Positions 7,782 to 36,324 of a stretch of DNA of 64,000 bases are shown piece after piece. The number at the start of each line of letters is the position of its first letter. Position 1 is the first letter of the stretch. The notes below the pieces were generated by a model. It saw only the letters and a list, made by a program, of their open reading frames with translations. It did no database searches and was not told the DNA's origin. A program made the translations under genes and the position numbers. The stretch is from Candidatus Thorarchaeota archaeon (GTDB lineage: Archaea; Asgardarchaeota; Thorarchaeia; Thorarchaeales; Thorarchaeaceae), in assembly GCA_019057475.1 (NCBI GenBank), contig DXJO01000010.1, positions 1 through 64,000 of the forward strand, given 5' to 3'.

Positions 7782-7795
7782 TTTTTTGTGAGCAT

Positions 7796-17502: not shown

Positions 17503-17516
17503 TAGTTCCTCCGTTG

Positions 17517-18068: not shown

Positions 18069-18069
18069 C

Positions 18070-18552
18070 TCAAATCATTCTCTGTGCAAGCTCGTTTATC
18101 CCAGCACCTCGATAGCCATTTACGCCGCCCATTCCAACGCCGAGGTTGCGCTTGCCACGAAAGCCCTTCTTCGGTGGGGTCAACCTAAAGACAGGTTTGA
18201 GTCCCTCAACGTCGTTCACGCTGGCTGTTCCTGCAACCAATCCCTTGGCGAGGGCCTTAATCGATGAATGGCTTGAATTCTTCTTCACATAGACATCAGT
18301 AAGGCGCCTGTTTCCTGAGAGGCGGCCACGCTTAGCTAGAATCCTGTACGCAGTGTCAGCGTCGATCTCACCCCATGTGATGTAATCCTTCGCCTTGGTA
18401 ATCATTCCCTGAAGACTAGGTGTAAGCTTGATGACCCTTGCCTGGTGAAGTCTGCCAAGACGCAACTTTTTCAATGTGTCTTCAATCTGAGGCCTAACAC
18501 TCACTTGTCCTCTGAGACGTATCGCCAGTATAACGGTTCCATTTTCACTCAT
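18070..18552 (-). CDS. rpl30: 50S ribosomal protein uL30
   Basis: AIRLRG, DYITWGE, FRLTPPKKGF, GYRGAGINEL. Confidence 0.96.
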   Translation of the reverse strand: MSENGTVILAIRLRGQVSVRPQIEDTLKKLRLGRLHQARVIKLTPSLQGMITKAKDYITWGEIDADTAYRILAKRGRLSGNRRLTDVYVKKNSSHSSIKALAKGLVAGTASVNDVEGLKPVFRLTPPKKGFRGKRNLGVGMGGVNGYRGAGINELAQRMI

Positions 18553-19235
18553 GACTCAGCCACTCCTGCTGTTGCCCATTCCTGAGGTGGCAGCATCTTG
18601 TATGTTTTTGAAAGCGCATCAACAAACGCTTTGGCGAAGTTCGAGGATGTCCTAGAACGGCCCTTTGTCATCGACCATACATCCTTCAGTCCTGCAATTC
18701 GAAGAACTATCTTGCCGACATCAGCCGTGACTAAACCAGTTCCTTTTGGAGCCGGCTTGAGTGTCACATGAACTGAGCCCGACGTTCCTTTCACTGCAAA
18801 CGGGACGCTGTGAGGATCGTGACATCGGCATTCCCAAGAACCACAGCCCCTGCGCAAGGGTGTGATGTTCATCTTAGCCCTAGCTTCAGCTGCTCTAATC
18901 GATGGGACAAACTCTGGAGCCTTCCCTATACCGATCCCGATGTTGCCCTGGCCATCACCGACGACGACAGTAATGCGGAAGCTCTTCTGTTGGCCGCTGT
19001 CTGATTGGCGTTGAACTAGGTTCACGTCTACAATCTCCTGCTGGAGTTCTGGAAACAGCATATCTACGATCTCGGATTCTCTTATGAGAAGGTTCTGCTG
19101 TAGAACCTCCTGCAGACTGTTGATGTGACCTTCCTTAACCAGCTCCCCCAGCCGCGTCTTAGGAACCCAGTCCTTAAGCGGGTCTACGTCCTGTCGGGGT
19201 TGTCGACGCCTTCCTTTGTTTCTTCTACTCATCAT
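18549..19235 (-). CDS. rps5: 30S ribosomal protein uS5
   Basis: WVPKTRLGELVK, RGCGSWEC, LKPAPKGTGL; start reassigned to MMSRRNK, after the L18 stop. Confidence 0.97.
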   Translation of the reverse strand: MMSRRNKGRRRQPRQDVDPLKDWVPKTRLGELVKEGHINSLQEVLQQNLLIRESEIVDMLFPELQQEIVDVNLVQRQSDSGQQKSFRITVVVGDGQGNIGIGIGKAPEFVPSIRAAEARAKMNITPLRRGCGSWECRCHDPHSVPFAVKGTSGSVHVTLKPAPKGTGLVTADVGKIVLRIAGLKDVWSMTKGRSRTSSNFAKAFVDALSKTYKMLPPQEWATAGVAES

Positions 19236-19245
19236 GTACCATCCC

Positions 19246-19995
19246 CTATTTTTTCTTACCTCTACGCGCAAGGAGTTTCTTGGGTTTCGGTTTTCTGGGC
19301 ACTGCACGAGGTGCTTTCTCTGCGGGTTTCTCTGCAGCCTTTTTAACGGGCTTCTTGGCGGCAGCCTTCTTTGCAGGTGTCGCCTTTCTCTTCTTTTTCT
19401 TCTTGAGCTCTGCCTTCGGTATCTCCAAGAGAGCTTTCTTCACCTTCTTGAACTGTCTTGGAATGCTTGTAACGGTTGTCTTCTTCTTTCCCACCTTTGA
19501 AAACATCAGTGAGTCGCCTGCGTTTTCAGCAAAGTGATTGTACGCCGCCACGATATGTTCGCCAGAAAGTCTGGCTTCATCTGGCAGAACATCTGGATTG
19601 TGTGAGATGTTAAGGCCTGCATCTAGCGCTCCAGCAAGTGCTGCGTAGATTTTCGAGCCCTTCACTGGAGGATTAAGTCCAATGTCAAGTACTGCTTTCT
19701 CTATGCCTCTACTCTTAGCTCTTAGACCAGCTAGCAGGCCGGTAAGATAGGCGGCAGGCATGTTTCCACCACTAACAGTCCAACCATGATCGGAAATCTC
19801 TGGTGAAACTGCGGATGCCACAGTCATGTCACCAGCCACTCTTGCATTTACAACTTGGACTACCATTCCTGTATTGGTCTTCCTGACCACAAGGCGCGGG
19901 AGTCTGGAGAGCAGTAGCCGACGGCGACGATAGTAGTTCGTCTTGCCCTCTCGTCTGCGTCTAAACTTGACTTTGTATGTCGGTCCATGAGCCAT
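19246..19995 (-). CDS. rpl18: 50S ribosomal protein uL18 with Lys/Ala-rich C-terminal extension
   Basis: FRRRREGKTNY, AAYLTGLL, LDIGL, GALDAGL. Confidence 0.96.
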   Translation of the reverse strand: MAHGPTYKVKFRRRREGKTNYYRRRRLLLSRLPRLVVRKTNTGMVVQVVNARVAGDMTVASAVSPEISDHGWTVSGGNMPAAYLTGLLAGLRAKSRGIEKAVLDIGLNPPVKGSKIYAALAGALDAGLNISHNPDVLPDEARLSGEHIVAAYNHFAENAGDSLMFSKVGKKKTTVTSIPRQFKKVKKALLEIPKAELKKKKKRKATPAKKAAAKKPVKKAAEKPAEKAPRAVPRKPKPKKLLARRGKKK

Positions 19996-20447
19996 TATTT
20001 CACTTTCCCTAACTTGTGCTCTTTGATGTAAGTTCTCATGTGCGCAGTGTTCCTGAACGCGTTGCCTTTTGCCTTCAAGTATAGCTCGCGATATACCCCC
20101 CGCGTGATCTTGCTCTCGCTTCTGAGTCGCTTCAGCTCACGACGCATTGGGCGTATCTTCATCATCCATCGCTCCTTGCCTGAAAGTCGGGCAGTGGCTT
20201 TACCTTTCATCTTGCCAGGTCCTTTTCTCTGACCTTTCCGCTTCTGACGCATATTGTGACGCGCCCGACCTCTGCTCACACCTTTCTTGGGTCGTTTCTG
20301 GATTACGCCCTCGTCAACAAGACGGCGGATATCTTCTTTAGTGATTGCGAGACTGGTTTCATCTTCGAATTCGGGATCTATCCAAACACGCGACTTCCCT
20401 ACTTTCATCACTTGGGCAGCGAGTCGTTTTTGGGATGTAAGCCTCAT
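19995..20447 (-). CDS. rpl19e: 50S ribosomal protein eL19
   Basis: QKRLAAQVMKVGKSRVWIDP, YRELYLKAKGN. Confidence 0.97.
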   Translation of the reverse strand: MRLTSQKRLAAQVMKVGKSRVWIDPEFEDETSLAITKEDIRRLVDEGVIQKRPKKGVSRGRARHNMRQKRKGQRKGPGKMKGKATARLSGKERWMMKIRPMRRELKRLRSESKITRGVYRELYLKAKGNAFRNTAHMRTYIKEHKLGKVK

Positions 20448-20449
20448 CT

Positions 20450-21229
20450 CTAGTCAACCTCCACGTCGAGCTCCGAGAAGAGGTCCTCTTCTGAGATGCT
20501 CTCCGGAGCGCCAGGATTCAGAACTCTTAGGGACATTGCGTCGGCTTTCTTGAGAATCGCTTGGCGTTTCCTCATTCCGACGGTTGCTCCAATCCTGATG
20601 GCATGAACCTCGGGATTCAGTTCTTCGAAGTCAGCTGGCCTGTGAACAAGCACTTCAATGAATCTTGACGGATGCATACCTCTCACAGCCTTTGGCTTTC
20701 TGTATCCCGGAGACACCATAGCTATGCGGCCCTTGCGTTTCTCTCGTGTAGCGTTATCTATTCCGCGTAGCTTTCTCCAGGAATCGCTTACGCGCGTCCA
20801 GCGATGTGCTTGTTCATGGCGGAACCGAGGTTGCTTCCTTCTCATCTCTTTTGAAATCCTGAGAAGTCTTTGATCAATAAGCTTGTCCCTGGCGTGTATC
20901 TCCTTCTCTTTCTTCTTAGCCTTCTTCTTTGCAGGTGTCTTCTTGATCCTAGCCTTCGGCTCAACCTTCTTCTTGGCTGGCGCCTTTTTGGGCTTCTCCT
21001 TCTTCGGTGCAGCTTTCTTGGCTTTCGGAGCCTCTGGCACAATCCTCTTGGCAGATGAAATGATTTCAGCTGCTCTGCTCTCGCTGAGGCCATCTACCTT
21101 GGTTGCAAGCTTTGCAGGGTCGCTCTTCGACACCTTCGCCACGGTCTTGAACCCGGCTGCGACAAGCTTTTCCTCTAGCTTTGGCCCGACTCCATAGACA
21201 TCTGTCAGTTTTGGCTTTTTTGACATCAT
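20450..21229 (-). CDS. rpl32e: 50S ribosomal protein eL32 with N-terminal helix-hairpin-helix domain and Lys-rich linker
   Basis: C-terminal half: PRFRH..WRKLRGID..GYRKPKAVRGMHPS..RVLNP. N-terminus: LTDVYGVGPK..VDGLSESRA. Confidence 0.93.
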   Translation of the reverse strand: MMSKKPKLTDVYGVGPKLEEKLVAAGFKTVAKVSKSDPAKLATKVDGLSESRAAEIISSAKRIVPEAPKAKKAAPKKEKPKKAPAKKKVEPKARIKKTPAKKKAKKKEKEIHARDKLIDQRLLRISKEMRRKQPRFRHEQAHRWTRVSDSWRKLRGIDNATREKRKGRIAMVSPGYRKPKAVRGMHPSRFIEVLVHRPADFEELNPEVHAIRIGATVGMRKRQAILKKADAMSLRVLNPGAPESISEEDLFSELDVEVD

Positions 21230-21237
21230 CTCGCCTC

Positions 21238-21801
21238 CTATACTATCGACTTGACCGCTTCACCTTTCCTCTTCGTGAGGACGTAGATGCCGTCAAGGAA
21301 AACACGCCTGTCCTTGTGACGGATCTTTGTGGCGAGCTGTATGTTCGCGGCAGTCTGCGACACATGCTCAATATTGATGCCGCTGATGATTACATCATCC
21401 TCTCCGGTCTTTATCTCAACGTCACCTATGACGTGTGCCTTACGAACGCCACGTTCTCCGATGAAGTTCTTGATCATGACCTCCTTGCCCTTCACCTCAA
21501 CAGTGATTGGGAAGTGACTGTACACGATTTTCATCTTGTATTCATAGCCATGCTGTACACCTGTGAACATGTTACGCACGTGGGCAATAGCAGTACCAAC
21601 CAGAGCTCGGGTGCTCTTGCGCGACCTTTTGGTGGATACTACCACTTCATTGCCCTCTATGACGATGCTCGTCTGAGGTTCCGGAAATGTCCGTTCAAGC
21701 GTTCCGAGAGGTCCCGTCACCGTGACTGTCTTGCCCTCTAGATTGACCTGACAATCACTGGGGATTTCGATACGCTGCCCGTAGCTTGGTTTGCCTAACA
21801 T
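21238..21801 (-). CDS. rpl6: 50S ribosomal protein uL6
   Basis: YSHFPI, NFIGER, KDRRVFLDGIY. Confidence 0.97.
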   Translation of the reverse strand: MLGKPSYGQRIEIPSDCQVNLEGKTVTVTGPLGTLERTFPEPQTSIVIEGNEVVVSTKRSRKSTRALVGTAIAHVRNMFTGVQHGYEYKMKIVYSHFPITVEVKGKEVMIKNFIGERGVRKAHVIGDVEIKTGEDDVIISGINIEHVSQTAANIQLATKIRHKDRRVFLDGIYVLTKRKGEAVKSIV

Positions 21802-21813
21802 CTTCGTTTCACC

Positions 21814-22206
21814 TCAGTATACGTATGCAAGCAATCGTCCGCCAATTCCTTCCTTCTTGGCGTCCTCATGAGTCATGACCCCGTTAGGCGTGGTCACAAT
21901 CAGTATTCCATAGTTGAATGCTGGCAGGAAGCGTTTCTCATATTTCTCAAAGCCGTCGCGCTTCACAGGATATCGCGGCTTGATTACTCCGCACTTATTG
22001 GTTCGGCCCATGAGCTGTATTCTGAATCTGCCAGCCTTGCCATCATCTATGCGCTCGAATTCGCCGACGTAACCCCTTGATTGCATGACCTGCAATACCC
22101 TTTCTATCAGGCTGGAAGCTGGTGCAACAACGACCTCCGGTTTCCCGACTAGCTCGCTGTTGTATATGCTTGACATCGCATCAGCCAGTGGATCTAGTAG
22201 TGTCAT
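21814..22206 (-). CDS. rps8: 30S ribosomal protein uS8
   Basis: [29 protein letters not shown]. Confidence 0.97.
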
Positions 22207-22221
22207 TTCTTCACGGACCTC

Positions 22222-22395
22222 CTAACTATACTTGCGGAATCCCAGCTTGATAGCTGTTTCCCTGAAACAGCGTCGGCACATATTCAAACCGTACGAGCGG
22301 ATTACGGCCCTGTGAGTACCACATCGGTGACAAGTCCGGCTTCCTTTGCCCATCTTCTTTCGCTGTCTTCCTTGATTTTTCTTCGTACTCATCAT
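22222..22395 (-). CDS. rps14: 30S ribosomal protein uS14 (zinc-binding)
   Basis: Translated by hand, 57 aa (below the track cut-off): [33 protein letters not shown]. Confidence 0.96.
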
Positions 22396-22403
22396 GCTTC
22401 ACC

Positions 22404-22979
22404 TCAGAATAGATAGGTCCTCTCACGCAGCTTTTCGAGTATTTCGACTCCAAACTTGTTCTTGACGAAGACCATACTCTCTTCCGGTGTTAGCCTATGT
22501 CTGTACGGAATTTTGTTTCTCCGCCTACGTCTTCGCTTCACTCTAAAGCCAGGACGTTCGACGCAGATAGTGATGTTCATACCTTGAATGCCCAGCTGAG
22601 GGTCGTACTTCACTCCCGGTATGTCTATGTGCTCACCGATTCCAAAGGCAAAATTACCATCCAAGTCCCAGTTCTTGATTAGGAGTACATTCTCCTTGGC
22701 CTTGAGCGCCTTAATCAGGAACTCCTCTGCTCTCTTGTGTCTCAGAGTGACTCTTACGGCAATCGCTTCATTCTTCCTGATACCAAACTCTCTAACCGTC
22801 TGGCGGGCTTTTGATCGGACTGGAGTTTGATCAGTCAACTGCTCCAGTATCGTGGATGCCTTGCTCATCTCCTCTCCGCCTCCGGCACAGATGTCCACTA
22901 CGACTTTCGAGATAAGCGGCTCACGCATCGGGTATGCCTTCCACTCTTCAACATAGAGATGTTCATTTGGAGTGCTCAT
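22404..22979 (-). CDS. rpl5: 50S ribosomal protein uL5
   Basis: FGIRKNEAIAVRVTLR, GNFAFGIGEHID.PGVKYDP. Confidence 0.97.
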   Translation of the reverse strand: MSTPNEHLYVEEWKAYPMREPLISKVVVDICAGGGEEMSKASTILEQLTDQTPVRSKARQTVREFGIRKNEAIAVRVTLRHKRAEEFLIKALKAKENVLLIKNWDLDGNFAFGIGEHIDIPGVKYDPQLGIQGMNITICVERPGFRVKRRRRRRNKIPYRHRLTPEESMVFVKNKFGVEILEKLRERTYLF

Positions 22980-23731
22980 TATTCAGACCCTCCGGCGGAA
23001 CTAAGGCTGATTTCTGGTTTCTTGGTACCCACAACGAACACGTATTCCAGAGCTGTCTGGACTCTGTTCCCATCTGGATCCTCTAGTGTTACTGTACTTG
23101 CGTGAGTACCTAACCGCCTTTCAATCTCAACAATTCTACCCTCAATCCCGATGTTCTTTCCCCGGGTGACTATGCTGTAGACACCATTGTCGAGGGGTAT
23201 GGAAGATATGATCTTCTGGTCCGGGATGGATATCTTCAGTGTATCCAACGATTTGTAATCTGATGGCTTTGCCCCTTCTGGGAGCAAAATATTACGGCCA
23301 TCATGCAGTGCTATTTGGAGTTTTCCACCAGGAATCATCCTCTTACTCTCAACCCTGCAGAGTTTGATGCTTGTTTCCTTCTTGGGAATCTCTACAAGGC
23401 GGAATCCACCTCGTCGCTTGGGGAGGAGTCTGAAGCGTTCACCTGATGACTTAATCTCGACGACATCCATCAGACCGATTGGATACCCTGGGTCTTTCCG
23501 TACTCGACCATCAACCAACACTTGGCCATCGGAGAGTATCATCTTCACCTCGCGCATGTTCTCTGCATGGCCCAGCATCTCTCGTAGTAGAATTGCCAAT
23601 GTTAGGCACTGATCCTTGGGGTGTGGACCTGCGGTTGGCTTGGTCGTGAACTTTGCTACCTTCCTCTCTATGGGCCAATGTCTTGGTGCAGGTAAGCGTT
23701 TCAAGTGCTTCTTCTGGCCTCTTCTTGTCAT
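22979..23731 (-). CDS. rps4e: 30S ribosomal protein eS4
   Basis: KHLKRLPAP.HW, GPH, VDGRVRKD..PIGLMDV, LHDGRNIL. Confidence 0.97.
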   Translation of the reverse strand: MTRRGQKKHLKRLPAPRHWPIERKVAKFTTKPTAGPHPKDQCLTLAILLREMLGHAENMREVKMILSDGQVLVDGRVRKDPGYPIGLMDVVEIKSSGERFRLLPKRRGGFRLVEIPKKETSIKLCRVESKRMIPGGKLQIALHDGRNILLPEGAKPSDYKSLDTLKISIPDQKIISSIPLDNGVYSIVTRGKNIGIEGRIVEIERRLGTHASTVTLEDPDGNRVQTALEYVFVVGTKKPEISLSSAGGSE

Positions 23732-24118
23732 CTATTCACTCTCCGCGATATTGACTACTTTGCGCTCGATGAGTTTTTTCCTTTCATCATCAAGCTCAAG
23801 TTGTGTTATCTTAAGGTTGGATGGATGGAGTGGAATCTGTACTTCCTTGCCATCTGCCTTTGTGGTTGTTCCACTCTCTACATAGACTCGTACGTTGCTG
23901 TAGTCAACCTTAACGACCTTTCCTTCAGTGTCTCGAAACTGTCCCCTCATTATTCGAACGAGGTCTCCCTTCTTTACAACTAGTGAGCGAAGACCGTAAT
24001 CTTCCCTGAGGAACTCGTCTAGCTGGCATTTCAACAATCGTTTGCGGGTATGCAAGGGTGACTTGTAGATGCGCCTCCGTTGCTTGCGTGGGGACTTGGA
24101 ACTCGGCTTCTTTGTCAT
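23732..24118 (-). CDS. rpl24: 50S ribosomal protein uL24
   Basis: PRKQRR, KGDLVRIMRG, HPSNL.I..L.L.D..R. Confidence 0.96.
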   Translation of the reverse strand: MTKKPSSKSPRKQRRRIYKSPLHTRKRLLKCQLDEFLREDYGLRSLVVKKGDLVRIMRGQFRDTEGKVVKVDYSNVRVYVESGTTTKADGKEVQIPLHPSNLKITQLELDDERKKLIERKVVNIAESE

Positions 24119-24129
24119 CAGTTTCTACC

Positions 24130-24552
24130 TCACACTATCTTCGAAGCGATGGCAGCAACTCTGGGCCACTTCAGAGTGACCTCTCTCGCCATTGGTCCTC
24201 GGAGTTCTGAACCCTGAGGTTCGCCTCCCGGTTTGATGAGAACTGCTGCATTGTCCTCAAACTGCATCCACGTGCCATCCGGTCTGCGGAACGGTTTTCG
24301 TTGACGCACAATGATTGCTTGGATGACTTGCTTTCGCAACTCCTGTTTCCCTTTTGTCACAGATACATTCACCCGGTCCGCAATACCGGCCTTTCCCAGT
24401 TTCCGGAGCTTTCCCTTGTATCCAAAGACTGTAATTATCTGAAGTTCTTTGGCACCAGAATTGTCTGCACACAGAATCTTGGCCCCAATGGGCAGCCCTC
24501 GTGCAATCCTGGGAATGAATTTCCTGATGCCTCTACCGATTTTCCTTGACAT
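24130..24552 (-). CDS. rpl14: 50S ribosomal protein uL14
   Basis: CADNSGAK, RQRKPFRR.DG..FEDNAAV. Confidence 0.97.
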   Translation of the reverse strand: MSRKIGRGIRKFIPRIARGLPIGAKILCADNSGAKELQIITVFGYKGKLRKLGKAGIADRVNVSVTKGKQELRKQVIQAIIVRQRKPFRRPDGTWMQFEDNAAVLIKPGGEPQGSELRGPMAREVTLKWPRVAAIASKIV

Positions 24553-24555
24553 GGA

Positions 24556-24930
24556 CTATTCCTCCTCTTCAGTTCGTTGCGACTTCGTTTCTATTACTAC
24601 GAAGGATACAGTCTTGCTAAGGGGACGACATTCGGCTACTCTGACTGTATCGCCTACCTTGGCGTCAATGCACGGTGGAAGATGAGCATGCTTCTTTGAC
24701 CTGCGCCTTTCATATCGAGAGTACTTTTTGACAAGGCGCAAATAGTCCGTTTGGAACGTAATCGACTTGTGCATCTTCACGCTGGTGACGACGCCCTCTA
24801 TTATGCGTCCTCTGACTGGGAGACTGCCGTGGAATGGGCAGTTCGGATCGTCACACACATTCTCAGGTGGCTCTACATTTGGAATCCCAATATCACGGAC
24901 TTTTACTTTCGAATCAACCATCTTCACCAT
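24556..24930 (-). CDS. rps17: 30S ribosomal protein uS17
   Basis: CDDPNCPFHG.L.VRG, AECRPLSKTVSF. Confidence 0.97.
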   Translation of the reverse strand: MVKMVDSKVKVRDIGIPNVEPPENVCDDPNCPFHGSLPVRGRIIEGVVTSVKMHKSITFQTDYLRLVKKYSRYERRRSKKHAHLPPCIDAKVGDTVRVAECRPLSKTVSFVVIETKSQRTEEEE

Positions 24931-25208
24931 CTCCTGCTGAGGCGCTTCTTCAGCCTGTCTTCAGGTCTTCCTTTCAATACATGTCCGTCCACGCGGACGA
25001 TAGTTCCATCTGGAAGACTCATGTCGAACACGCAGTTGCTCTTTGGCAATTGGATTACACCTGCGCTTGTGTCGAGGTGAATCATCTCTCTGGACTCGGC
25101 AATTATTGTGCCAGATCTACACACCTGTCTAGGATCCCTAGATGCGACCACGTGTGTCTTCAAGCCAACCAGCTCGTGCTGGATGAGGTTCATTGGAGTC
25201 ACAGTCAT
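24924..25208 (-). CDS. rnp1: RNase P protein subunit Rpp29
   Basis: NLIQHELVGL, G.L.GRPEDRL; operon position. Confidence 0.92.
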   Translation of the reverse strand: MTVTPMNLIQHELVGLKTHVVASRDPRQVCRSGTIIAESREMIHLDTSAGVIQLPKSNCVFDMSLPDGTIVRVDGHVLKGRPEDRLKKRLSRRW

Positions 25209-25417
25209 TGTTCTAGCTTCAACTCCTCTTCTCTCTGAATCGTTAGAATCCTGGCAATAGTTCTCTTGATTGCCCTTGTCTGGTAGGGGTTATCAGAACC
25301 GCCCCCAGTGGCAATCTGGATTCTGACACTGGTGAGCTCATTGAACAGCTCATCCATCTTCTTCTGGCGTTCTGCCGGATTGAGTTTGCGGATGTCCTTT
25401 GCTGTAAGTCGAGCCAT
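25205..25417 (-). CDS. rpl29: 50S ribosomal protein uL29
   Basis: DIRKL..ER..EL..EL, IKRTIARILTI. Confidence 0.94.
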   Translation of the reverse strand: MARLTAKDIRKLNPAERQKKMDELFNELTSVRIQIATGGGSDNPYQTRAIKRTIARILTIQREEELKLEQ

Positions 25418-25420
25418 CTT

Positions 25421-26341
25421 TTAATCGCCTCCTTCATTGGGCGTGTCAAGTTCGTCCAATTCCTTCAGTTCTTCCAGAGTGCTCTTTTCGTCAGGCAACG
25501 ACTCGCTTTCTATTTCAGGCGGCTTCTCTTCAGGTTCAGCGGACTCTGCTTTGTCTGGAGCCTTCTTCTCTTCGGTGGTCTCAACATCTTCCACAAGCTC
25601 AAGTCCATCGAGTTCTTCTAGTTCTCTTAGCTCCTCTAAGTCCGTTATTCCCTCAAGGCGCTCTTCGACATCTGCGGTTTCAGAAACCACATCACCCTCC
25701 TCTTCCGCTGGTTTGAGCAGCTCTAGCTCTGCAGGTTTCTTTGGCTTCGGTTTCTTGACAACTATCACTCCAGGTAGTTTGGCATCGGGTTGCATTATTC
25801 TGACCTTGATACCTATTGCACCTGGCTTTAGGATGGCAGTATCATCTGCCTCATCAACATACAGCTCGGCTGGTGCGCCCGTTTTGGCAACCGTGGCTTG
25901 CTTGAACTTCTGGTAGCGTCCTCTCCTGCTTGACAATTTGCCCTTGACGATTATCTCGCATCCTAGTGCCCCGGCACGCATTACACGACGAAGGATCCAA
26001 TATGCCATTCTTCGGAAACGGACGCCTCGCTCCAGCTGTCTTGCAAGTCTGGAAGCCATTGCCTGAGCACAAAGCCAAGGATTTTCTATCTCGCTCACTT
26101 CGACCTGCACGTTCTCAATACCAAAATCGGTTTCAAGGATGTCTGACAATTCTCGTATCTTGGACCCTCGACGTCCAATAACCACGCCTGGCCTAGAGGC
26201 ATGAATGATGACTTCTGTACGCATGGGCATCTTCCGGATTTCCACACCGCCGTATCCGGCTGCGTTGAGTTCTCGCCCCAAGAACTCGTCAATCTTAAGC
26301 TTGCGAGTGTTTTGCTCTATGAAGTACTTCACTGCCGACAC
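25421..26341 (-). CDS. rps3: 30S ribosomal protein uS3 with acidic C-terminal extension
   Basis: RPGVVIGRRG, GALGCEIIVKGKL, GAIGIKVRIM. Confidence 0.97.
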   Translation of the reverse strand: MSAVKYFIEQNTRKLKIDEFLGRELNAAGYGGVEIRKMPMRTEVIIHASRPGVVIGRRGSKIRELSDILETDFGIENVQVEVSEIENPWLCAQAMASRLARQLERGVRFRRMAYWILRRVMRAGALGCEIIVKGKLSSRRGRYQKFKQATVAKTGAPAELYVDEADDTAILKPGAIGIKVRIMQPDAKLPGVIVVKKPKPKKPAELELLKPAEEEGDVVSETADVEERLEGITDLEELRELEELDGLELVEDVETTEEKKAPDKAESAEPEEKPPEIESESLPDEKSTLEELKELDELDTPNEGGD

Positions 26342-26806
26342 TTAACCCACCTCTTCCAACACAATCTCGATGTGTGTAGTGTTCTCGAAGTACGGCGAAC
26401 TCTTGCCAAAAGCTCTCTCAATGTACTTCTTGTATGTTCTACCGCGCTGTGCGGCTGAATGGACTATCCTAAGCCTATCAATGTCCAGACCCTTGCTGTC
26501 CGCATTGGCTTCAGCGTTTCTCAGAATCTTCAAGATACCCTTGGATGCTTTCACCGGATGACCGCCTGGAGCCCACTTCTTCATACCTGCGTGGTGGCCG
26601 CGCTTCTTCTTGTGGCGTCTGTAAGGTATCCATACCTTCTCTTCAATTACGCTTTCAAGAAGATCAATGGCCTTGTCGAGCATCATTCCGCGAATTTCGT
26701 TACAGACTTCTCTGGACTGTTTGGGAGAGCAGCGCAGATTTCTGCCACTAGCTACGGCTGTTCGGTCTGGGTCCATGCCTATGATTGAATATCCATATGT
26801 CGGCAT
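26342..26806 (-). CDS. rpl22: 50S ribosomal protein uL22
   Basis: SPKQSREVC, NAEANA..KGLD, RAFG..P..THIEIVLEE. Confidence 0.96.
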   Translation of the reverse strand: MPTYGYSIIGMDPDRTAVASGRNLRCSPKQSREVCNEIRGMMLDKAIDLLESVIEEKVWIPYRRHKKKRGHHAGMKKWAPGGHPVKASKGILKILRNAEANADSKGLDIDRLRIVHSAAQRGRTYKKYIERAFGKSSPYFENTTHIEIVLEEVG

Positions 26807-27112
26807 TGTGCCTCACTTCCGGTATAGCGATCTGGCCGGTGTAACCCAGTTATACCACTGTGTCCAACCAGACACTATGACACCCTCAACGACTACTTCA
26901 GACCCTACCGGCACACGTATACAGACTGTTCTCGCGAGCAGAACTAGGCGCCTGCACTGCATCCATCGGTTCTCAAGCAATCGCTTCCAGAGAGCGACTG
27001 GCCAGTTTCGGAAATGTTTAGCATTTAAACCTATGGACTTGCAGGTCTTAAGACGCCTGGATTCCTGAGTTCTCCACGTCTACTGGCATTCTCTCGTCAG
27101 TAAGGGGGGATT

Positions 27113-28602: not shown

Positions 28603-28774
28603 CAACCTGGGTAATGACTTGGCATCTAGAGCGATGGAATTCTTACAGCCCTCTAGTAATCTGGAACACAGAGATGTAAGAAATATGTAAATTTTCTACG
28701 ATACGCGGGAGTCATCCACATGTGCCTGCATCGCCATGACTCCCACTCAGTCCATCTCATTCCTGATATCTTCC

Positions 28775-31700
28775 CTAGGATACCCGGATACTCCTGTCCC
28801 GCAGGGCTTGGACACAGCTCCTGATTATATCCCTCAGCATTGACTCATCAAGCTTCAGTTCGCCAAGGTCACTCCTCACCATCTCTGATACCTCATCACG
28901 GCTCAGGCGGCCCCACTCCTGCATTTTGTGAATCCATGACAAGACCGGGTACTCGTACTCATCTCCATGCGTGGAGTTCAAGACAACGTGCAACTGCTCA
29001 CCTCCGAAAGAAGCCCTGCTTACAGTCACTCTCTCAAATGTCAGGTCAGCTCTCTCTTCACTCACTCTAGCACCCTCAAGGGCGTCCTCAATCTTGCCTC
29101 GAATCGCCGCCGTCAACTTCCTGTCTGGTGTCATACTGTACCGTTTCAGGAGCCGTTCCATCCCTTTCCTCATGAACTCACGGGCATCATCTGGATCACC
29201 CAGTGCAAGCCCTCTCTTTTTCAGTTTCAGTGTCCGCTCCTCGCCGACACCTCTCAGACAGAGTCCTATCGTGACCTTGTTCGGTTCAATCATGAACGAT
29301 GGGTCCCAGTTGTCCGCAGCATCCAAGTAGGTTCCGGGGATAATCAACTTCTTGTCACCATGCAGCAGCTTCCTGAGATGCCACGACTCTTGGAGTTCTG
29401 CATACATCTCTTTCTTGAGGATGAGGTCAAAGGAGTGAGTCACCCATGATTCTCTCTCCTCTGACCAGTAGACAAGCTCGCGTGCGTTTGCCAGGGACAT
29501 CGCCAGAGAGTCAGTCATTCTGAACTCCCGTAGTTCTAGCACTTCAGGGGGCATGGGCTGGCGGCTATAGATCCTGAATCTCCAACAGGACCCGTGACTC
29601 ATGCCAGACTCGTTGGCCAGACGTTCCGGCTGACCAAGGGGAGGTTCGAACCTGAACAAGTAGTCAGAGTCCACATGGCTGCCCCTCTTACGTTCTCTTC
29701 TTATGTCTTCCAATGAGATGTATCTCAGGGGACAGGTCCAGGGGTCATGATACACCTCCAACTCGAGGTCCATATCACGTTCTGCCAACATGAGATCATC
29801 AGCAGTTTGTGGTAGAGCAAAGGCAAGCTGTCCAAATGGGTTCTTTCTCTCCACCCATGGCCTGATAACTGCGACATCGCTTGTATACTCGATATCTCTG
29901 AATCTGTTCCAGATGAGCCGCTCACTCTCCACCACTGCAGGCTCGCATTCGTAGTCAGGTCTTCGGAGCAGCTCCAACAGGTCTGCGGTCCTGTTCACCA
30001 GTAGCCGCAGAGGCTTCTGCTCATCTTCCACGGGTCGATTGTCCGAATCAGCAAAGACGATAGAGTACATGCTCTCGTCATGGTCCAGTGATACATGGCA
30101 TTTGACTGACCTACAGCCCTCAAGACCCCTGTCTACAATGAGCATTGCCACATCGATGGGGTCGTTGAGGTATGAGGGAAGCCGTCTCACATCGTGAGTT
30201 GGGATTGCCTCAAGCAGTGGTTCCTCTCGCATAGTGATTGTTCTGACTAGAGTCACATCCTCGATTCGACGGGTTGTATAGTCAACCCTCCCCACCGGGG
30301 ACCAGATACCTCTCTCGCCATCGAGTATCCATATGGCCTGCAGGTTTCTGTGTCTGGCTATCATGATTGGTGTCCCGGTCGTCCTTCGTGCGATGGCGGC
30401 ATGCTTGCTGAGCCTGCTGATGTCGCTCTCGCTCCAATACGTCTTCTCGGACACCAGTGCCTTGAGAAGAGCGGGTGGGGGTAATGTCGAATCCACGCCC
30501 CTAGACGTTAGCAGGGCGGCATTCATCTCCTGGCCACCGGGTCTACGCTGGAACACCAGCCATAACATGTCAGAGCTGGCATCACCAGATGTGGTCGGCA
30601 CAATGAGCTGTCCGAACCGCACATCACTCACAGAGTTCATTGTTTCAAGCGTTGCATTGAGCTGGGACACCCTTTGCCGCAGTCGTGGCAGGAGCTTCTG
30701 CCGGTCCAGTACGGAACTTCCTGTCGTGTGGCCCTTGGGATAGCTTGCTCTGAAACCGAGTCCCATCAGATGCCATGGTATGACATACTTCCACAGTGAC
30801 TCAAGGGAGTCTGTAAGTATCACCGACTGTCCACCTCCCAAGGCCGCAAGAATCAACAGGAAGAGATGATTTCCGGTAATCAGCAATAGATCCGGGTGTT
30901 TCATCTTAATCCTCTCGATGTGTCCTCGCTGGTTTGAGTCTAGCGACTTAGGCCCCTTGGATCGAACTGGCCAAAGTCGTTTCCATAGCGTCTTGCTGAG
31001 GTCGCTGGTTTCCAGCGTTTGACGGACTAATCTAAGCCTGTTCATCAGTTCATCACTGCTGACTGTTGAAACCTTTTCTTCCTCAATCTCCAGTGCATCT
31101 CCCATCCTCTGCAAGAGATCCTCCCAATCATCAGAACCCTTCTGAGTTCCTTGGAGAAATTCAATCGTGTTACTTAGTGCTCTCAGTTCCATCCAAGCTA
31201 TAGAGCGATTGCTCACAGTCCTGATTGAGAGGAGTGCTTCTGACGGGGGTTTCGTGGTCCTCTCTGGCGGCCTGACGCCGAGCTTCATTGTCCTGTATTC
31301 GCGTCTTTGGTCAATCTTCTCCATGGGCAGGAGCCGCTTGATTCTTCCATCCGAGTCGATTCTGTCCTTGTACTGATAGAACTTGAACCGAAGTCTATCA
31401 GGCAGTTCCGAGTCCTCTACAGGCACATCATCCAGATGTACTGACTCTATCTCGTAGCTTGCGTCAACCCTTTCCTTCTCAGGCAATTGCTGTGACCAGA
31501 AGTGTGGGACCAGTGTTATCGCGTCTCTTATGTCGCCATCCGTGTATGTTCCGGCATATTTCACTGAAGAAACCGTAGTACCAATTGAGTAGGTCTCTCT
31601 TTGCTGTCGTCGCCCTCCAGACCTGAAGTCTTCACCCCAATCCTTGAGAACTTCCACATTGATTAACTCAGTCTTCGAAGTTGTCTCGTCGTGACGCTCT

Positions 31701-34195
31701 ACAACCAAGACTCTGGTGTCATAGTCTGCAGAGGCTAGAGCGCCGAGTCTGCGGGGCGGCATTGGCAGATTCCATACTATCTCATCCACATACCTCTCCC
31801 AGTGAGTATTCCTGTAGAAGGGAGCGACGCATCGTGTCTCGTATAGAGCGTTGTTCTGCGCTAGCGGGACCGGGTGAGCGAACCAGACCACTTTGCATCC
31901 AACCGGGGTTTCTGAGATGAGTAACCTTGCAAACTCGTTGAGTGCCCCGAGGAGAGGATCAGGAGTCCCACGCCGCAGGAAATCCCAACCGGTGACTACA
32001 ATGATCGGTTTCCTGCTGTCTTTCAGTACAGGTTCTACCTTGGCCTTGAGTTCCTTCAGTGTGGCTCCTTCATGGAGATAGGCTCTGACCACCGAGGAAA
32101 GGTCTATCATCTGCACTCTCCTCCTGTAGAATCGTTTCACTGAAGCGCTGTGTCGGGAGAGTCTAAGGCGTTGCCGCGCAAGTACAGAATCTCCATATTC
32201 ACCCGTAAGGTCGAACCAGATCACGTCTCTGGCTCGGTTTCGTGCAAGGCTGTGAATGTACTGTAGTCCGTGCCACCGTGAAGCAATGACTGAGGCAGAC
32301 TGGGATGGTGACCCTCTTCCGCTCACCGAGAGGTAAAGGATGAACTCCTTCTCATCGTCCACGCGATTCTTGAACGGGTCAAATTGCTCCACATAATTAA
32401 TCGGCCGTACTTCAGATGCTGAGATAGTGCTAGACAGAACTTTCAGGACCATTCTCAGAGGTCGACCGCTTTCACTAGGTCGGAGAACATCTCCCATGGT
32501 AAGATCATTGTTCGAAGCTCTTTGATAGGCCTCAAGAATAAGGGGCGAAATTGCCTTCCTCATTTCTCCCCAGTCCTCCTTAGAGTCTACAACAATTACA
32601 GCCTTGAGAAGGTCTGTTGGTGCTAGAGTGTCCTTCCGCATTACGCTGCTATACTCAGATAGAATGGCATCACTGTAGGCTTGAAGTTGTGCCCTGTTAG
32701 CCTCTGAAACAGGACTCGCAATGACTCTGTCCCAGTTGTCCTCGGTCATCCTCCTTCGCTCAAGTACGAACTCATTGACGGTGTTCTCTTCGCTCTTGGA
32801 TTTGGTCTCGACACCGTAGATATCGACATCGAATGAACTCCTAGTCTTCAAATCGACGACCATGCAGGGTTCGTATACAATTACGACAGGACTATTATCA
32901 GCTCGGGAGAGAAACTTTCTTCGCATCAAAACTAGGTCTGCACGTCCTCTTCCACCAGCCACGTACAATTCTGAGGTCAGCAACATACCCGATGTATCAT
33001 ATGTCATCTCATCTCCGTGATAGACCACTGCACTGAGCTTGAACGGGCTTGGGAAGTACTTGGAAATGAAACGATGAAATCTGACACCGACTCGCCTGCT
33101 CTCCTCAGTGGCCTTCCTAAGCAGCTCTCTTGCATCATCCTCCGTGAGTTTTCCATTCATTATCAGACTCTTGACCTGCTCAATGGAGTCACCCCACTCG
33201 ATGATACCCTCCTTCTTGGAGCGCGCTATCATTCGATCGAAGAGGTTCTTGAGCTGGTCTTCAGCAGCAGTTTCAGATTCATCGACTAGAGCGCTGAATG
33301 AATAATGGAGATCATCCGATGGAACCCACTCTTCCGCGGCCTCCTCAATTTCTTCAGGCTCATCGAGAGAGATCTCATTCTTCGACGTATGCTTCTCCAA
33401 GGATTCCGCAATTTCAGAAGTTATGGACTGAGGCCGACCGTTTCTCGTTCCAAACTGAGCACGTATTCGGTCCACGACCGCTCTCAGTTCTTGAATCCCA
33501 CCTCGAATGAAGTTTGAACGACCAGTGTTTCTCTCAGTGTACACGTAGTCCATGAAGGGCAACAGCCTGTCGACGAGTTCATCAACGTACTTCATGGTCT
33601 TCCTCCGCGGGACACCGTATTTCAGACACTGTCTAACTAGTTCAACGAGATGAGAGCGAATCATGTCTCCAAAGTCCAGCTCAGGCAGATGATTATGTCT
33701 CAAAGGATAGATTGGTGTCTTTGCAGAACCCGGATAGCCAACTCCAAGTTTCCCATTGCCCAGGGTAATCACCCCCGGTCTAGGGAACTCGAAGCGTTCC
33801 TTCATGACATCTCTGATTCTACTCCCCGAATAGTCCCATAACTGGTTCAGGTACTCTTGGTTCCCCTCACTGCGTTTCGTACGCTTGGTTTCCCTGTTGC
33901 CGTACTTGACTGATGTCTTCAACATGATTCGGGAGAAGCTTCTTCGTATATCCTTCTCGACCTTGAGGAGCTTCCACGCATCAGGAGCACCATTCGTCAC
34001 CGTTTCTTTATACTCTTCTTTCGCTTCTCTCCAAATCTTTGCCATGCCTTTGATGCGATTACCCTGACCATGGTACAACGGATGTGCCTCCCCAGTGGCT
34101 CTGTCTTTGGCCAAGGCAAGAGTTGCTGACATTGCCATCTGAAAGGCTGTGGTAAGGACTTTTGCAGGATTCCGTGGATATGAAGGATTGCGCAT
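28775..34195 (-). CDS. Very large (1806 aa) protein with a RecB-family PD-(D/E)XK nuclease domain
   Basis: Long intact ORF. Motifs GVRFH, ELYV..GRGRADLV, VVDLKT and AQLQAY in RecB/Cas4-like order; the rest is not recognised. Confidence 0.75.
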   Translation of the reverse strand: MRNPSYPRNPAKVLTTAFQMAMSATLALAKDRATGEAHPLYHGQGNRIKGMAKIWREAKEEYKETVTNGAPDAWKLLKVEKDIRRSFSRIMLKTSVKYGNRETKRTKRSEGNQEYLNQLWDYSGSRIRDVMKERFEFPRPGVITLGNGKLGVGYPGSAKTPIYPLRHNHLPELDFGDMIRSHLVELVRQCLKYGVPRRKTMKYVDELVDRLLPFMDYVYTERNTGRSNFIRGGIQELRAVVDRIRAQFGTRNGRPQSITSEIAESLEKHTSKNEISLDEPEEIEEAAEEWVPSDDLHYSFSALVDESETAAEDQLKNLFDRMIARSKKEGIIEWGDSIEQVKSLIMNGKLTEDDARELLRKATEESRRVGVRFHRFISKYFPSPFKLSAVVYHGDEMTYDTSGMLLTSELYVAGGRGRADLVLMRRKFLSRADNSPVVIVYEPCMVVDLKTRSSFDVDIYGVETKSKSEENTVNEFVLERRRMTEDNWDRVIASPVSEANRAQLQAYSDAILSEYSSVMRKDTLAPTDLLKAVIVVDSKEDWGEMRKAISPLILEAYQRASNNDLTMGDVLRPSESGRPLRMVLKVLSSTISASEVRPINYVEQFDPFKNRVDDEKEFILYLSVSGRGSPSQSASVIASRWHGLQYIHSLARNRARDVIWFDLTGEYGDSVLARQRLRLSRHSASVKRFYRRRVQMIDLSSVVRAYLHEGATLKELKAKVEPVLKDSRKPIIVVTGWDFLRRGTPDPLLGALNEFARLLISETPVGCKVVWFAHPVPLAQNNALYETRCVAPFYRNTHWERYVDEIVWNLPMPPRRLGALASADYDTRVLVVERHDETTSKTELINVEVLKDWGEDFRSGGRRQQRETYSIGTTVSSVKYAGTYTDGDIRDAITLVPHFWSQQLPEKERVDASYEIESVHLDDVPVEDSELPDRLRFKFYQYKDRIDSDGRIKRLLPMEKIDQRREYRTMKLGVRPPERTTKPPSEALLSIRTVSNRSIAWMELRALSNTIEFLQGTQKGSDDWEDLLQRMGDALEIEEEKVSTVSSDELMNRLRLVRQTLETSDLSKTLWKRLWPVRSKGPKSLDSNQRGHIERIKMKHPDLLLITGNHLFLLILAALGGGQSVILTDSLESLWKYVIPWHLMGLGFRASYPKGHTTGSSVLDRQKLLPRLRQRVSQLNATLETMNSVSDVRFGQLIVPTTSGDASSDMLWLVFQRRPGGQEMNAALLTSRGVDSTLPPPALLKALVSEKTYWSESDISRLSKHAAIARRTTGTPIMIARHRNLQAIWILDGERGIWSPVGRVDYTTRRIEDVTLVRTITMREEPLLEAIPTHDVRRLPSYLNDPIDVAMLIVDRGLEGCRSVKCHVSLDHDESMYSIVFADSDNRPVEDEQKPLRLLVNRTADLLELLRRPDYECEPAVVESERLIWNRFRDIEYTSDVAVIRPWVERKNPFGQLAFALPQTADDLMLAERDMDLELEVYHDPWTCPLRYISLEDIRRERKRGSHVDSDYLFRFEPPLGQPERLANESGMSHGSCWRFRIYSRQPMPPEVLELREFRMTDSLAMSLANARELVYWSEERESWVTHSFDLILKKEMYAELQESWHLRKLLHGDKKLIIPGTYLDAADNWDPSFMIEPNKVTIGLCLRGVGEERTLKLKKRGLALGDPDDAREFMRKGMERLLKRYSMTPDRKLTAAIRGKIEDALEGARVSEERADLTFERVTVSRASFGGEQLHVVLNSTHGDEYEYPVLSWIHKMQEWGRLSRDEVSEMVRSDLGELKLDESMLRDIIRSCVQALRDRSIRVS

Positions 34196-34446
34196 TGAGA
34201 TGAATCATTGTACTAAATATATAAGAATTGTTACGGCTAAAGTGACCTATGCAATACTCAATTTAACCCAAACATTCAGAGGCTAAACGCGGTTTTGTTA
34301 ATATGACGGAAAGCAGTCTTAATAACCTTATATAGGTTCATTCTGTAAAAGAATACGAGTTCAAAACCCCTGTTCAATACAGGGATGGGAGTGAACTCAA
34401 CTGACCGAAACAGGTCAGAACTTTATATAGGAGAAGACGAAAGGCG

Positions 34447-36123
34447 ATGGCTCAGTCTAAAGGTGTCACAATCTCTGTCAAGGTACCCATCAAATGGGAT
34501 GCGATGACAGAGAGAACACAACAGCGGCTCAGGCAAATTGTGGGCCGGGACACCAGAGCAGTCCGTGCTTTCCTTGGTATTATTGAACAACACGAAGACA
34601 AATTGTTGACAGGTCGTAACAATGGTAGGATACGTGATGGTGAGCTCGACAAGCTCACGATGACCGCAATCAAGGTCAAAGCAGGATTCCTTCAGAGATT
34701 GACAGTCCCGCATGACCTCAAGGCTCAGTTTTCTAGAATGTCGCAGAACGAGCTGACAGAGTGTCGGCAGACTGCAGTTGCACTCTATGAGAGCTACCTC
34801 AAACTTCGCAGGAAGAAAGGAATGAAAGCCTCCCGTCCCTGCAAGATCAACTCGACTCAGAGGATTCCTAGGTGGGTGTTCAATCAGAGGTTCAAGCTCT
34901 TTGAGAAACGCACGACTGTTGCTAGATGGTGGTTGGACTTACGTGATTCTCTTGACTCTGTGCCGGAGGGAAGGAGAGTCCACGACAGGCTCTTGATCCC
35001 CCTGAAGATGTCACCCTTTCATCTCAACCAGATTGATAGAGGGGAAGTTAAGGCACTACAGGTTCTCATTGATCGAAATGGGAAGTGGTGGGTGACCTTT
35101 GCAGTTCGAGTTGACACACCAGAGCCACCAACTGACAGTCTACCTCTGGCTGTGCTTGGAATGGACCTTGGTATCGAAAAGTCTGCATGCACGACCCTTG
35201 TCACTCCCACGAAGGTCAGGGAGACCAGATACTTCGTTCAGAGGGACAAGGTGAAGGTGATCAAGAAGTATGACAGACAGGTGGCAGACCTTCAACATGA
35301 GATGGCATCGAGAAGAAATGACGGACTGCCTTACGACAAGGTTGCAGAGAAACTCAGAAGGCTCCGAACAAAGCGAGAGAACGTTGCACGAGAGTATGAC
35401 CGCGTTCTGGTACGACAGCTTGTGGACTACATCACCGAGCTCTCTGAGAGATACACCCTGTATGTTGCCATTGGTAGACTCAAGAACATCAGGGTCACTG
35501 CACGCAGAGGTAACTTCAGGGGTCGCAGGTTCAGGGGGATGATCCATTCCTGGGCTTTTGCGAGAATCACTGACAACCTCCAGCATGCATTGGCACAGCT
35601 CGGATGGTCTGTTAGTGGAAAGGATTCTCGTTTCCGAGTAGTTCCTGAGAACTGGACCTCTATCATGTGCTGGAAGTGCGGTCGCAAGGGAAGACGCCCC
35701 AGGCAGAACTACTTTGTGTGTCCAACCTGTGGAAACAGGTGCAACGCCGACAAGAACGGAGCCATCAACATCGCCGGACGCCTCATTACGCTCACGGGAT
35801 CACTTCATTCTGTGAGAGGACTAGGCAAGTGGGCTAATGCTGTTTCACGCAGCCAACGCTCACTCCCGAAAACCCGAGGGAAGGTCTCTTCTCAAGGGAG
35901 GTCCTTACTCTCCATGAAGAGTGGTGTATCGCACTCTGGAGAGTCCGCGGCTGTTCACCATGCTCAGACGAGTCTTCTCAGTTTCAGCGATGAATCTGGG
36001 ATGGGTGATAATGACCCCGCCGTGGTAGGAACTGTGAAGACCCTCTCTGTCGCCGGGAGTGATACCCCAGCATCAAGACAGGAGAAGGAAGCCAGGTCTG
36101 TAGGAGGGATACCATCCCGATGA
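34447..36123 (+). CDS. tnpB: TnpB/Cas12f-like RNA-guided RuvC nuclease with rearranged RuvC-II
   Basis: RuvC-I GMDLG (D240); canonical RuvC-II position AIGRL has G343; alternative Glu in VPENWTS (E401); Zn finger CWKC..CPTC; RuvC-III NADKNGAINI (D435). Confidence 0.88.
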   Translation: MAQSKGVTISVKVPIKWDAMTERTQQRLRQIVGRDTRAVRAFLGIIEQHEDKLLTGRNNGRIRDGELDKLTMTAIKVKAGFLQRLTVPHDLKAQFSRMSQNELTECRQTAVALYESYLKLRRKKGMKASRPCKINSTQRIPRWVFNQRFKLFEKRTTVARWWLDLRDSLDSVPEGRRVHDRLLIPLKMSPFHLNQIDRGEVKALQVLIDRNGKWWVTFAVRVDTPEPPTDSLPLAVLGMDLGIEKSACTTLVTPTKVRETRYFVQRDKVKVIKKYDRQVADLQHEMASRRNDGLPYDKVAEKLRRLRTKRENVAREYDRVLVRQLVDYITELSERYTLYVAIGRLKNIRVTARRGNFRGRRFRGMIHSWAFARITDNLQHALAQLGWSVSGKDSRFRVVPENWTSIMCWKCGRKGRRPRQNYFVCPTCGNRCNADKNGAINIAGRLITLTGSLHSVRGLGKWANAVSRSQRSLPKTRGKVSSQGRSLLSMKSGVSHSGESAAVHHAQTSLLSFSDESGMGDNDPAVVGTVKTLSVAGSDTPASRQEKEARSVGGIPSR

Positions 36124-36129
36124 TGATAG

Positions 36130-36250
36130 ACAAAGCCCCTGCTGACTCCAGACTCCGCCGGAGTGTGGAGGATGGCGACATCTGGCAGGGGAAGGGTGGA
36201 ACACAGGAGTCTCTTACAGTTGAGTGTCACTCACATGAAATGTAAGAAAC
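36130..36250 (+). ncRNA. Candidate omegaRNA scaffold / element right end of the TnpB locus
   Basis: Nested hairpin CCCCTGC..CTCCA..ACTCC/GGAGT..TGGAG..GCAGGGG, then a TCTTACA/TGTAAGA stem enclosing GAGTG-T-CACTC and a TCAC motif; directly 3' of tnpB, where omegaRNAs usually lie. Confidence 0.5.
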
Positions 36251-36324
36251 GGGTAATAATACAATGAGTGATATAATCGTGGGTCAATCTGTTCACCGAT
36301 TTGGCCAACGCAATGGTGTAGATA

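Follow-up and report, generated by a model that had tools for sequence, protein, structure and literature searches.

The 64,000-nucleotide stretch of DNA analysed here, hereafter ‘the window’ (positions 1 to 64,000 of contig DXJO01000010.1 of a Candidatus Thorarchaeota archaeon, GenBank assembly GCA_019057475.1), carries at positions 28625–36257 a mobile element of ~7.63 kb, which very probably belongs to the aCas1-TnpB elements of Asgard type, so named after a diverged Cas1 homologue, the ‘Asgard Cas1’ (aCas1), and the RNA-guided nuclease TnpB. The element consists of a left end (LE), the aCas1 gene (P0001; 28775–34195, minus strand, 1806 codons plus stop), a divergent promoter region, tnpB (34447–36123, plus strand, 558 residues) and a right end (RE). 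As had been stated in the original prediction, which was made from the letters without database searches, the aCas1 gene is a single uninterrupted frame (list of open reading frames of the window) and stands head to head with tnpB across ~250 bp, the spacer amounting to 251 bp. The tnpB product matches PF07282 (2.6e-11) and PF01385 (3.5e-6) as well as Cas12f/Cas12u models of PADLOC (to 4e-19).

The aCas1 gene and tnpB move as one unit, as is evident from an empty site, from deletion derivatives, from a copy in another genomic context, and from miniature copies consisting of the ends only. First, the congener G182 has an empty site in which window position 28630 is joined directly to 36255 (...TTGGTCTTGA|AATAATACAAC... 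in G182 corresponding to ...TTGGCATCTAGA[element]AATAATACAATG... in the window). Second, the congeners G075 and G204 carry at the same site internally deleted derivatives that lack 29233–35974 and 29190–35780, respectively. Third, a copy on a contig from the European Nucleotide Archive (L096) is 89.5% identical over 7640 bp to the window from 36257 down to 28625 and unrelated to it beyond both ends; it is flanked by Band_7/methyltransferase genes and, on its other side, by a gene of metallo-beta-lactamase fold. The element in the window lies between a ribosomal-protein/SecY operon and hypD. Fourth, miniature copies of ~600–800 bp, in which 28625–28733 or up to 28888 is joined to 35801–36257, are present in this genome (C21:110963–111773, C34:68514–69107, C18:123095–123724 and C21:177590–178216) and in all six congeners, and retain 105–265 bases beyond and including the 3' end of the aCas1 gene together with the 3' end of tnpB with 135 bases. 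For the C21 miniature copy a clean empty site was sought and none was found.

The left end (28625–28774, plus strand) was delineated by alignment of five copies from this genome, the direct repeat and the table of junctions, and begins with TCTAGA, an insertion motif of the type TCNNGA, followed by GCGATGGAATTC. The right end, taken together with the 3' end of tnpB (35801–36257, plus strand), is the part retained in the miniature copies and terminates with ...ATGTAAGAAACGGGTAAT; it is presumably the omegaRNA scaffold region. Three motifs (TCTTACAG, GGAACACAG and ATGTAAGAAA) are common to LE and RE in the same orientation. Many RE copies exhibiting 81–92% identity are found in this genome and in all six congeners, and pieces comprising RE only occur elsewhere in the genome, several of them at contig ends. 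The contigs that begin or end within the RE repeat include C2 (1–150), C37 (1–132), C18 (123293–123724) and C21 (177784–178216); since this repeat breaks the assembly, all copy numbers are lower bounds.

At all left junctions one finds TCNNGA followed by GCGA, the hexamer being TCTAGA, TCATGA, TCAAGA, TCTTGA, TCAGGA or TCCGGA, along with two variants having TT, and in the empty site TCTTGA lies precisely at the junction. TC-NN-G is also present at the right junction in four of the seven copies of this genome. The motif constitutes a near-palindrome around its central dinucleotide, and a candidate crossover core of 2 bp is present on both sides of L096 (TC-TA-GA) and on the left side only of the window copy, with older copies being inconsistent. 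Hairpins at the element ends are weak (z −1.4 to −2.1). Another locus, L011, has direct repeats of 13 and 22 nucleotides (TTTAATAGAAAAT and GCCCCTGTAGTGTAGTCCGGTC; 7876–7929 and 15538–15595) outside both ends of its aCas1-TnpB pair, the longer of which is similar to the 5' portion of a tRNA, although ARAGORN predicts no tRNA at this position.

To define the architecture of aCas1, AlphaFold2 models were built from the family alignment (mean confidence, pLDDT, of 81 for residues 1–880 and 79 for residues 881–1806), and conservation was read from an alignment of 30 relatives with identities down to 23%. Residues 1–270 (33386–34195, minus strand) are predicted to form the catalytic alpha-helical domain of Cas1: in the model, residues 1–235 superpose on that domain of solved Cas1 proteins, and E80, R105, N117, H167, D174, D177 and R180 are invariant in all 30 aCas1 sequences. 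When the family was aligned with 19 Asgard Cas1s using hhalign, these invariant residues mapped to the motifs ‘iEG’, ‘RRRPP..N’, ‘fLH’ and ‘LDlxExFR’, the alignment itself being non-significant (E 0.14). Because the structural matches start only at Cas1 residues 81–113, which correspond to model residues 1–4, the N-terminal beta domain through which Cas1 dimerises is missing from aCas1. None of the 30 members has a Pfam match at E ≤ 1, Cas1 (PF01867) included, and profile searches of the PDB with the whole and the N-terminal alignments gave no Cas1 match.

A poorly conserved, disordered linker (residues 273–311) leads to a candidate RecB/Cas4-like nuclease of PD-(D/E)xK type (residues 346–540; 32576–33160, minus strand), the motifs of which are H374, E409, D420, D/E448-x-K450 and Q503-x3-Y507. 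The RecB-type order of motifs noticed originally is borne out by the relatives, among which G370, H374, E409, G417, D420, K450, Q503 and Y507 are invariant and position 448 is always Asp or Glu, and so is the lack of iron-sulfur (Fe-S) cysteines: residues 345–560 contain no conserved Cys, so that the four-cysteine Fe-S cluster of Cas4 is absent. The claim that the region adopts a RecB nuclease fold stands in part. It is favoured by the motifs, by the order of secondary structure elements in the model (helix, three strands, beta hairpin, QxxxY helix), which suits PD-(D/E)xK, and by language-model (Atlas) features that lie nearest to PD-(D/E)XK clusters (0.90; a lead only). However, Pfam searches with the protein and 30 relatives and a PDB profile search with the nuclease alignment were all empty, and hhalign against 12 Asgard Cas4s returned nothing; in fold searches with larger aCas1 models the match lists were filled by bigger domains rather than by the nuclease region.

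Structure comparison reveals a RecA-like core fold for residues 613–851 (31643–32359, minus strand), related to RecA, KaiC and RAD51 paralogs. Its P-loop reads G-R-G-S-P-x-Q-S, the Walker A Lys being absent in 30 of 30 sequences, and the ‘IIVVSGW’ strand is devoid of Asp or Glu, and thus of an acidic Walker B residue, in 28 of them. We regard this domain as a RecA/KaiC-like pseudo-ATPase: the degenerate P-loop-like domain anticipated by the original prediction is recovered, although it is not specifically HerA-like as had been supposed. The C-terminal half (residues 881–1806; 28775–31555, minus strand) is conserved and well modelled, but the fold of these ~930 residues could not be recognised. 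The original prediction had left ~1000 further residues unrecognised, which holds for this half; it had overlooked the Cas1 catalytic domain at the N-terminus, of all domains the most informative. Four almost invariant residues in the C-terminal half (H1483, C1488, H1534 and C1537) may form a zinc site.

All domains of aCas1 are under purifying selection. When compared with the 89%-identical copy L096, the ratio of non-synonymous to synonymous substitution rates (dN/dS) is 0.19 overall, and the regional values are low: 0.13 for the Cas1 domain, 0.17 for the nuclease, 0.15 for the RecA-like domain and 0.20–0.21 for the C-terminal half, with 0.39 for the linker. The protein is also by no means the orphan it had been taken for. 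A word-indexed search yielded 57 full-length homologues of 1500–1950 residues, all named ones being from Candidatus Thorarchaeota; an exhaustive profile search of 1.8 billion protein representatives yielded 181 aCas1-family clusters at 50% identity, with Thorarchaeota as the source of nearly all, the 150 listed matches being exclusively aCas1-family members, with no other Cas1 among them; and the same genome (3.34 Mb, 96% complete) holds five paralogs with 28–42% identity to P0001. A survey covering 200 genomes from the phylum located aCas1 in 29 of the 43 genomes of one taxonomic family and in one other genome. An aCas1-TnpB fragment (L032, JAAOYH010000074.1) lies on a 2.5-kb contig in a Woesearchaeota bin, which is probably a binning error, and a more diverged fragment (L044, JAOUKW010000231.1) is found in a Heimdallarchaeota bin.

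The coupling to the RNA-guided nuclease, which had been raised as a possibility, proves to be real and nearly obligatory in the family. A divergent TnpB gene lies upstream of aCas1 in all five paralogs of this genome and, with all five TnpB types used as queries, in 35 of the 38 assessable Thorarchaeota loci elsewhere, where the gap between the two genes is 190–360 bp apart from two exceptions of ~1.2 kb. A survey with the window TnpB as sole query had given 24 pairings in ~36 loci, which is an under-count because partners of the type seen on C53 and C54 are oversized, divergent TnpBs: the paralogs on these two contigs stand head to head with TnpB-family genes of 763 and 715 residues (PF07282, 1e-13 and 1e-11). 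The original prediction had held the adjacency to be incidental if the homologues were single-copy core genes never linked to tnpB; with five paralogs in this genome, TnpB linkage in nearly all loci elsewhere and mobility as a unit, this is clearly not the case.

A TnpB gene may also occur without an adjoining aCas1 gene, as observed at C42:185753–187885 (an oversized TnpB) and at C54:73634–75511. The latter encodes a TnpB 67% identical to that of the window, in a segment 70% identical to window 34354–36233, and since this copy shares the promoter region from 34354 onward, the tnpB segment is able to exist alone. Elsewhere on C54 (171720–174024; L095), the aCas1 paralog is paired with the 715-residue TnpB, the stop codon of which lies 81 bp from a tRNA-Lys(CTT) on the opposite strand; seven other elements checked for a neighbouring tRNA had none.

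The divergent control region (34196–34446) was delineated from its sequence and an alignment of 14 loci. It contains a TATA-like box ~25 nucleotides upstream of the aCas1 start and, upstream of tnpB (34320–34446), two further TATA-like boxes, the flanking bases of which co-vary within each locus (AACCTTATATAGG and AACTTTATATAGG here). Between these two boxes there is a conserved TACGAGTTCAAAA, then ~20 variable bases that keep a stem, and then GGGAGTGAACTCAACTGACC-loop-GGTCAG. The segment ahead of tnpB has the appearance of a small structured RNA with a promoter of its own, and the preservation of the stem by paired changes suggests that its variable stretch belongs to a structured RNA and does not represent spacers.

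With regard to the genomic surroundings, the archaeal ribosomal-protein/SecY operon directly on the left of the element (15396–27000; S3, S4e, L32e with a helix-hairpin-helix domain, and SecY) implies that the element was inserted beside core genes. Further to the left, positions 1–8000 have a G+C content of 0.43–0.44, compared with ~0.50 in the rest of the window, and encode three large NosD/right-handed beta-helix proteins (3–2054, 2047–4527 and 5412–7781).

Our assignment of the locus to the aCas1-TnpB elements is founded on the alignment with Cas1 motifs, the RecA-like fold, the nuclease motifs and the existence of published Asgard aCas1-TnpBs. By these criteria, aCas1 is very probably a Cas1-family protein of giant size that is specific to Asgard archaea and in which a Cas1 domain is followed by a RecB/Cas4-like nuclease, a RecA/KaiC-like domain and a large C-terminal half; as had been proposed, it is best described as a multi-domain DNA-processing enzyme. 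This identity is far more certain than any division of labour between the two proteins. For the latter, our preferred reading, to which we give a probability of roughly 45%, is that aCas1 is itself the transposase, or DNA-joining enzyme, of the element and operates by a non-canonical chemistry. It would recognise both asymmetric ends and insert the element at TCNNGA-type sites in a reaction unlike canonical Cas1 integration, given that a duplication of 14–15 bp does not arise. Processing of the element ends would fall to the RecB-like nuclease, and the RecA-like domain would serve as a scaffold for oligomerisation or DNA binding. TnpB, guided by RNA read from the right end into the flank, might then cut empty or excised sites, with TCNNGA acting as its target-adjacent motif, and the cut would lead to the element being copied back. 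Such copy-back after TnpB cutting has been shown for other TnpB transposons.

Several findings are in favour of aCas1 being the mobility enzyme: (i) the genome, which is 96% complete, yielded no TnpA of the Y1 type (PF01797), while control genomes were positive, (ii) there is no recombinase between 28625 and 36257, the two genes being alone in the element, (iii) a serine recombinase is encoded in cis in just two of 42 surveyed loci, and (iv) the dN/dS of the Cas1 domain is low. Other findings weigh against it. Casposases and CRISPR integrases leave duplications of 14 bp or more. The element ends have no terminal inverted repeats, the window copy when compared with the empty site has no target duplication, and L096 has at most the 6-bp TCTAGA on both sides; the junctions are thus unlike Cas1 chemistry and look like serine-recombinase or IS605-type insertion. 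Either, then, aCas1 works by a novel reaction, or the role of transposase does not fall to it. In addition, the link to Cas1 lacks significant support from sequence searches, and the dimerisation domain of Cas1 is not present. Finally, the similarities of aCas1 and TnpB are discordant between loci: the window TnpB is 65–73% identical to TnpBs adjoining aCas1s that share merely 25–29% identity with P0001, and conversely aCas1s at 43–49% identity adjoin TnpBs at 46–48% (discordant loci L023, L026, L029, L033, L036, L040 and L045 versus L010, L019 and L021). The two genes thus do not have a single common history and are not strictly co-inherited, and the discordance implies exchange of modules between elements.

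The most serious alternative, which we nevertheless regard as rather unlikely, is that the element is a transposon of the IS607 type that has lost its own TnpA. A TnpA supplied in trans from C53 or C19, the two IS607-type serine recombinases of this genome, would cross over at TC-NN-GA, and aCas1 would be an accessory or cargo protein associated with TnpB, for example one that processes the site cut by TnpB for copy-back repair. The IS607 family is characterized by the lack of inverted repeats and of target duplications, by short direct motifs and by exchange over a 2-bp core (PMC6188088), and the ends described here, with their shared direct motifs and the near-palindromic TCNNGA intact on both sides of L096, fit this hallmark. 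Moreover, in the paralogous element on C53, and in relatives from five or more other genomes, a serine recombinase of the IS607 type is encoded next to the 3' end of the aCas1 gene. This three-gene form, comprising the recombinase, aCas1 and an oversized TnpB, is found on C53 and in L014, G069:C7, G179:C18, G173:C21 and G152:C3; on C53 (671–9301; loci L002 and L094), the recombinase gene (742–1275, plus strand; PF00239 at 4.5e-14, with HTH_17/MerR) precedes aCas1 (1344–6812, minus strand) and the gene of the 763-residue TnpB (6995–9286, plus strand). The C53 element is bounded by a 13-mer, GGTTCCGTAACTG, at 671–683 and 9289–9301, with a near-palindrome, TTCAATGAAC, immediately on the inner side of both copies; the repeated 13-mer may represent an attachment core or else a target duplication of 13 bp.

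Against this alternative stands, first of all, the rarity of the recombinase in cis, and the fact that a similarity of the C53 element ends to those of the window element was sought and not found, so that cross-recognition would be required. Second, among the 17 genomes with aCas1 and a completeness of at least 90%, nine yielded no resolvase-domain gene, a point weakened by the incompleteness of assemblies. These nine include G182, which carries miniature copies, and G037 (99% complete), in which the end of the resident element recurs in copies of 96–100% identity, a mini-element among them. Third, no defined function would be left for a protein of 1806 residues that has kept its integrase site intact and is represented by five paralogs per genome.

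An adaptation-like module, in which Cas1 and the Cas4-like nuclease capture DNA and thereby renew the RNA guide of TnpB, as in a proto-CRISPR system preceding type V, appears highly improbable. Cas1 together with a Cas4-like nuclease is indeed the pairing known from CRISPR adaptation, and a hypervariable stretch beside a CRISPR-repeat-like motif, GTTCACTCA, has been reported for aCas1-TnpB loci (PMC10691335), where it lies downstream of tnpB at loci with repeats at their ends. The present element has direct motifs at its ends and related sequences, GTCACTCA at 36224–36231 and GTTCACTCC on the minus strand at 34388–34396, upstream of tnpB. However, none of the RE copies compared has a hypervariable internal segment, and they diverge only from the boundary of the element outward; the stem in the variable stretch ahead of tnpB is preserved, Cas2 and an array are both absent, a canonical Cas1 was not detected in the genome, and mobility of the whole unit is directly evident. 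Equally small is the chance we give to a broader notion, namely that aCas1 and TnpB represent a stage in evolution between TnpB transposons and CRISPR-Cas of type V, with the Cas1 domain and the Cas4-like nuclease either inserting or renewing a DNA segment that sets the guide of TnpB, or performing an RNA-guided, duplication-free Cas1 insertion of the element at TnpB-cut sites; were it true, Cas1 chemistry would for the first time be seen linked in nature to an RNA-guided nuclease encoded by a transposon. Strongly disfavoured, and the least probable of all, is the view that P0001 is a stand-alone host effector for defence, as originally suggested, or for DNA repair, beside a tnpB that is there incidentally or as a site-preferring insertion sequence: defence proteins typically have nuclease and ATPase-like domains, the tnpB segment can stand on its own and the TnpB and aCas1 similarities are discordant, but no PADLOC model matches P0001 at E ≤ 0.01, the locus is not in a defence island, the spacing and orientation of the two genes are constant in nearly all loci, and the empty-site, deletion and miniature copies place the outer ends beyond the 3' ends of both genes.

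Cas1 acts as the integrase in CRISPR memory and in the transposition of casposons, and Cas12 descends from TnpB. Elements that tie a Cas1 homologue to TnpB are of direct relevance to the assembly of CRISPR-Cas from mobile elements, and new tools for DNA insertion might be derived from them. The aCas1-TnpB family is known from computation alone, and the locus described here offers exact ends, an empty site, deletion derivatives, miniature substrates, a target motif and candidate catalytic residues as handles with which the contradiction between the Cas1 ancestry of the protein and the structure of the junctions could be resolved by experiment.

Among known systems, the element may first be compared with casposons, which are mobilised by a Cas1-family casposase (PDB 6opm). 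Casposons possess a family B DNA polymerase, terminal inverted repeats and a 14–15-bp duplication, whereas the window element is devoid of all three, and aCas1, unlike the casposase, lacks the N-terminal domain of Cas1, exceeds it fivefold in size and has TnpB as its partner. IS607 elements (PMC6188088) resemble the window element in the right-hand position of TnpB, in the lack of inverted repeats and of a duplication, and in their short direct motifs, and the relative on C53 even has a TnpA; the window element differs in having no TnpA, an inverted 5.4-kb aCas1 gene in the place of tnpA, and TCNNGA instead of GG as its motif. With IS200/IS605 it shares asymmetric ends, the absence of a duplication, a short insertion motif, and TnpB with an RNA at the right end, but a search of the genome for Y1 TnpA was negative and the end hairpins are weak. 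Cas4-Cas1 fusions also combine a Cas1 domain with a RecB-family nuclease in one protein; in aCas1, however, the order is reversed, with Cas1 first, there is no Fe-S cluster and no Cas2 or array, and ~1250 extra residues are present.

The closest match is with the published aCas1-TnpB loci, so that the locus is not the new system that had been envisaged. Koonin and Makarova (2022) described aCas1 as Cas1 homologues ‘possibly associated with novel MGE’ (mobile genetic elements). Altae-Tran et al. (2023; PMC10691335) report that TnpBs of two branches linked to Asgard archaea, Cas1H-Asgard-1 and -2, are associated with ‘Asgard Cas1s (aCas1s)’, name aCas1 a likely transposase on the grounds that the loci are flanked by repeats, and credit aCas1 to Makarova et al. 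2020 (CRISPR J). The window locus has the same Thorarchaeota host, a diverged Cas1 homologue by TnpB, repeated motifs bounding the locus and a GT(T)CACTCA-like motif near tnpB; nothing essential is different, and it is a member of this group. What the present analysis adds for this copy are the domain map beyond Cas1, the exact ends, the empty site, the deletion and miniature derivatives, the insertion at TCNNGA without a Cas1-type duplication, and the paralog that carries a serine recombinase.

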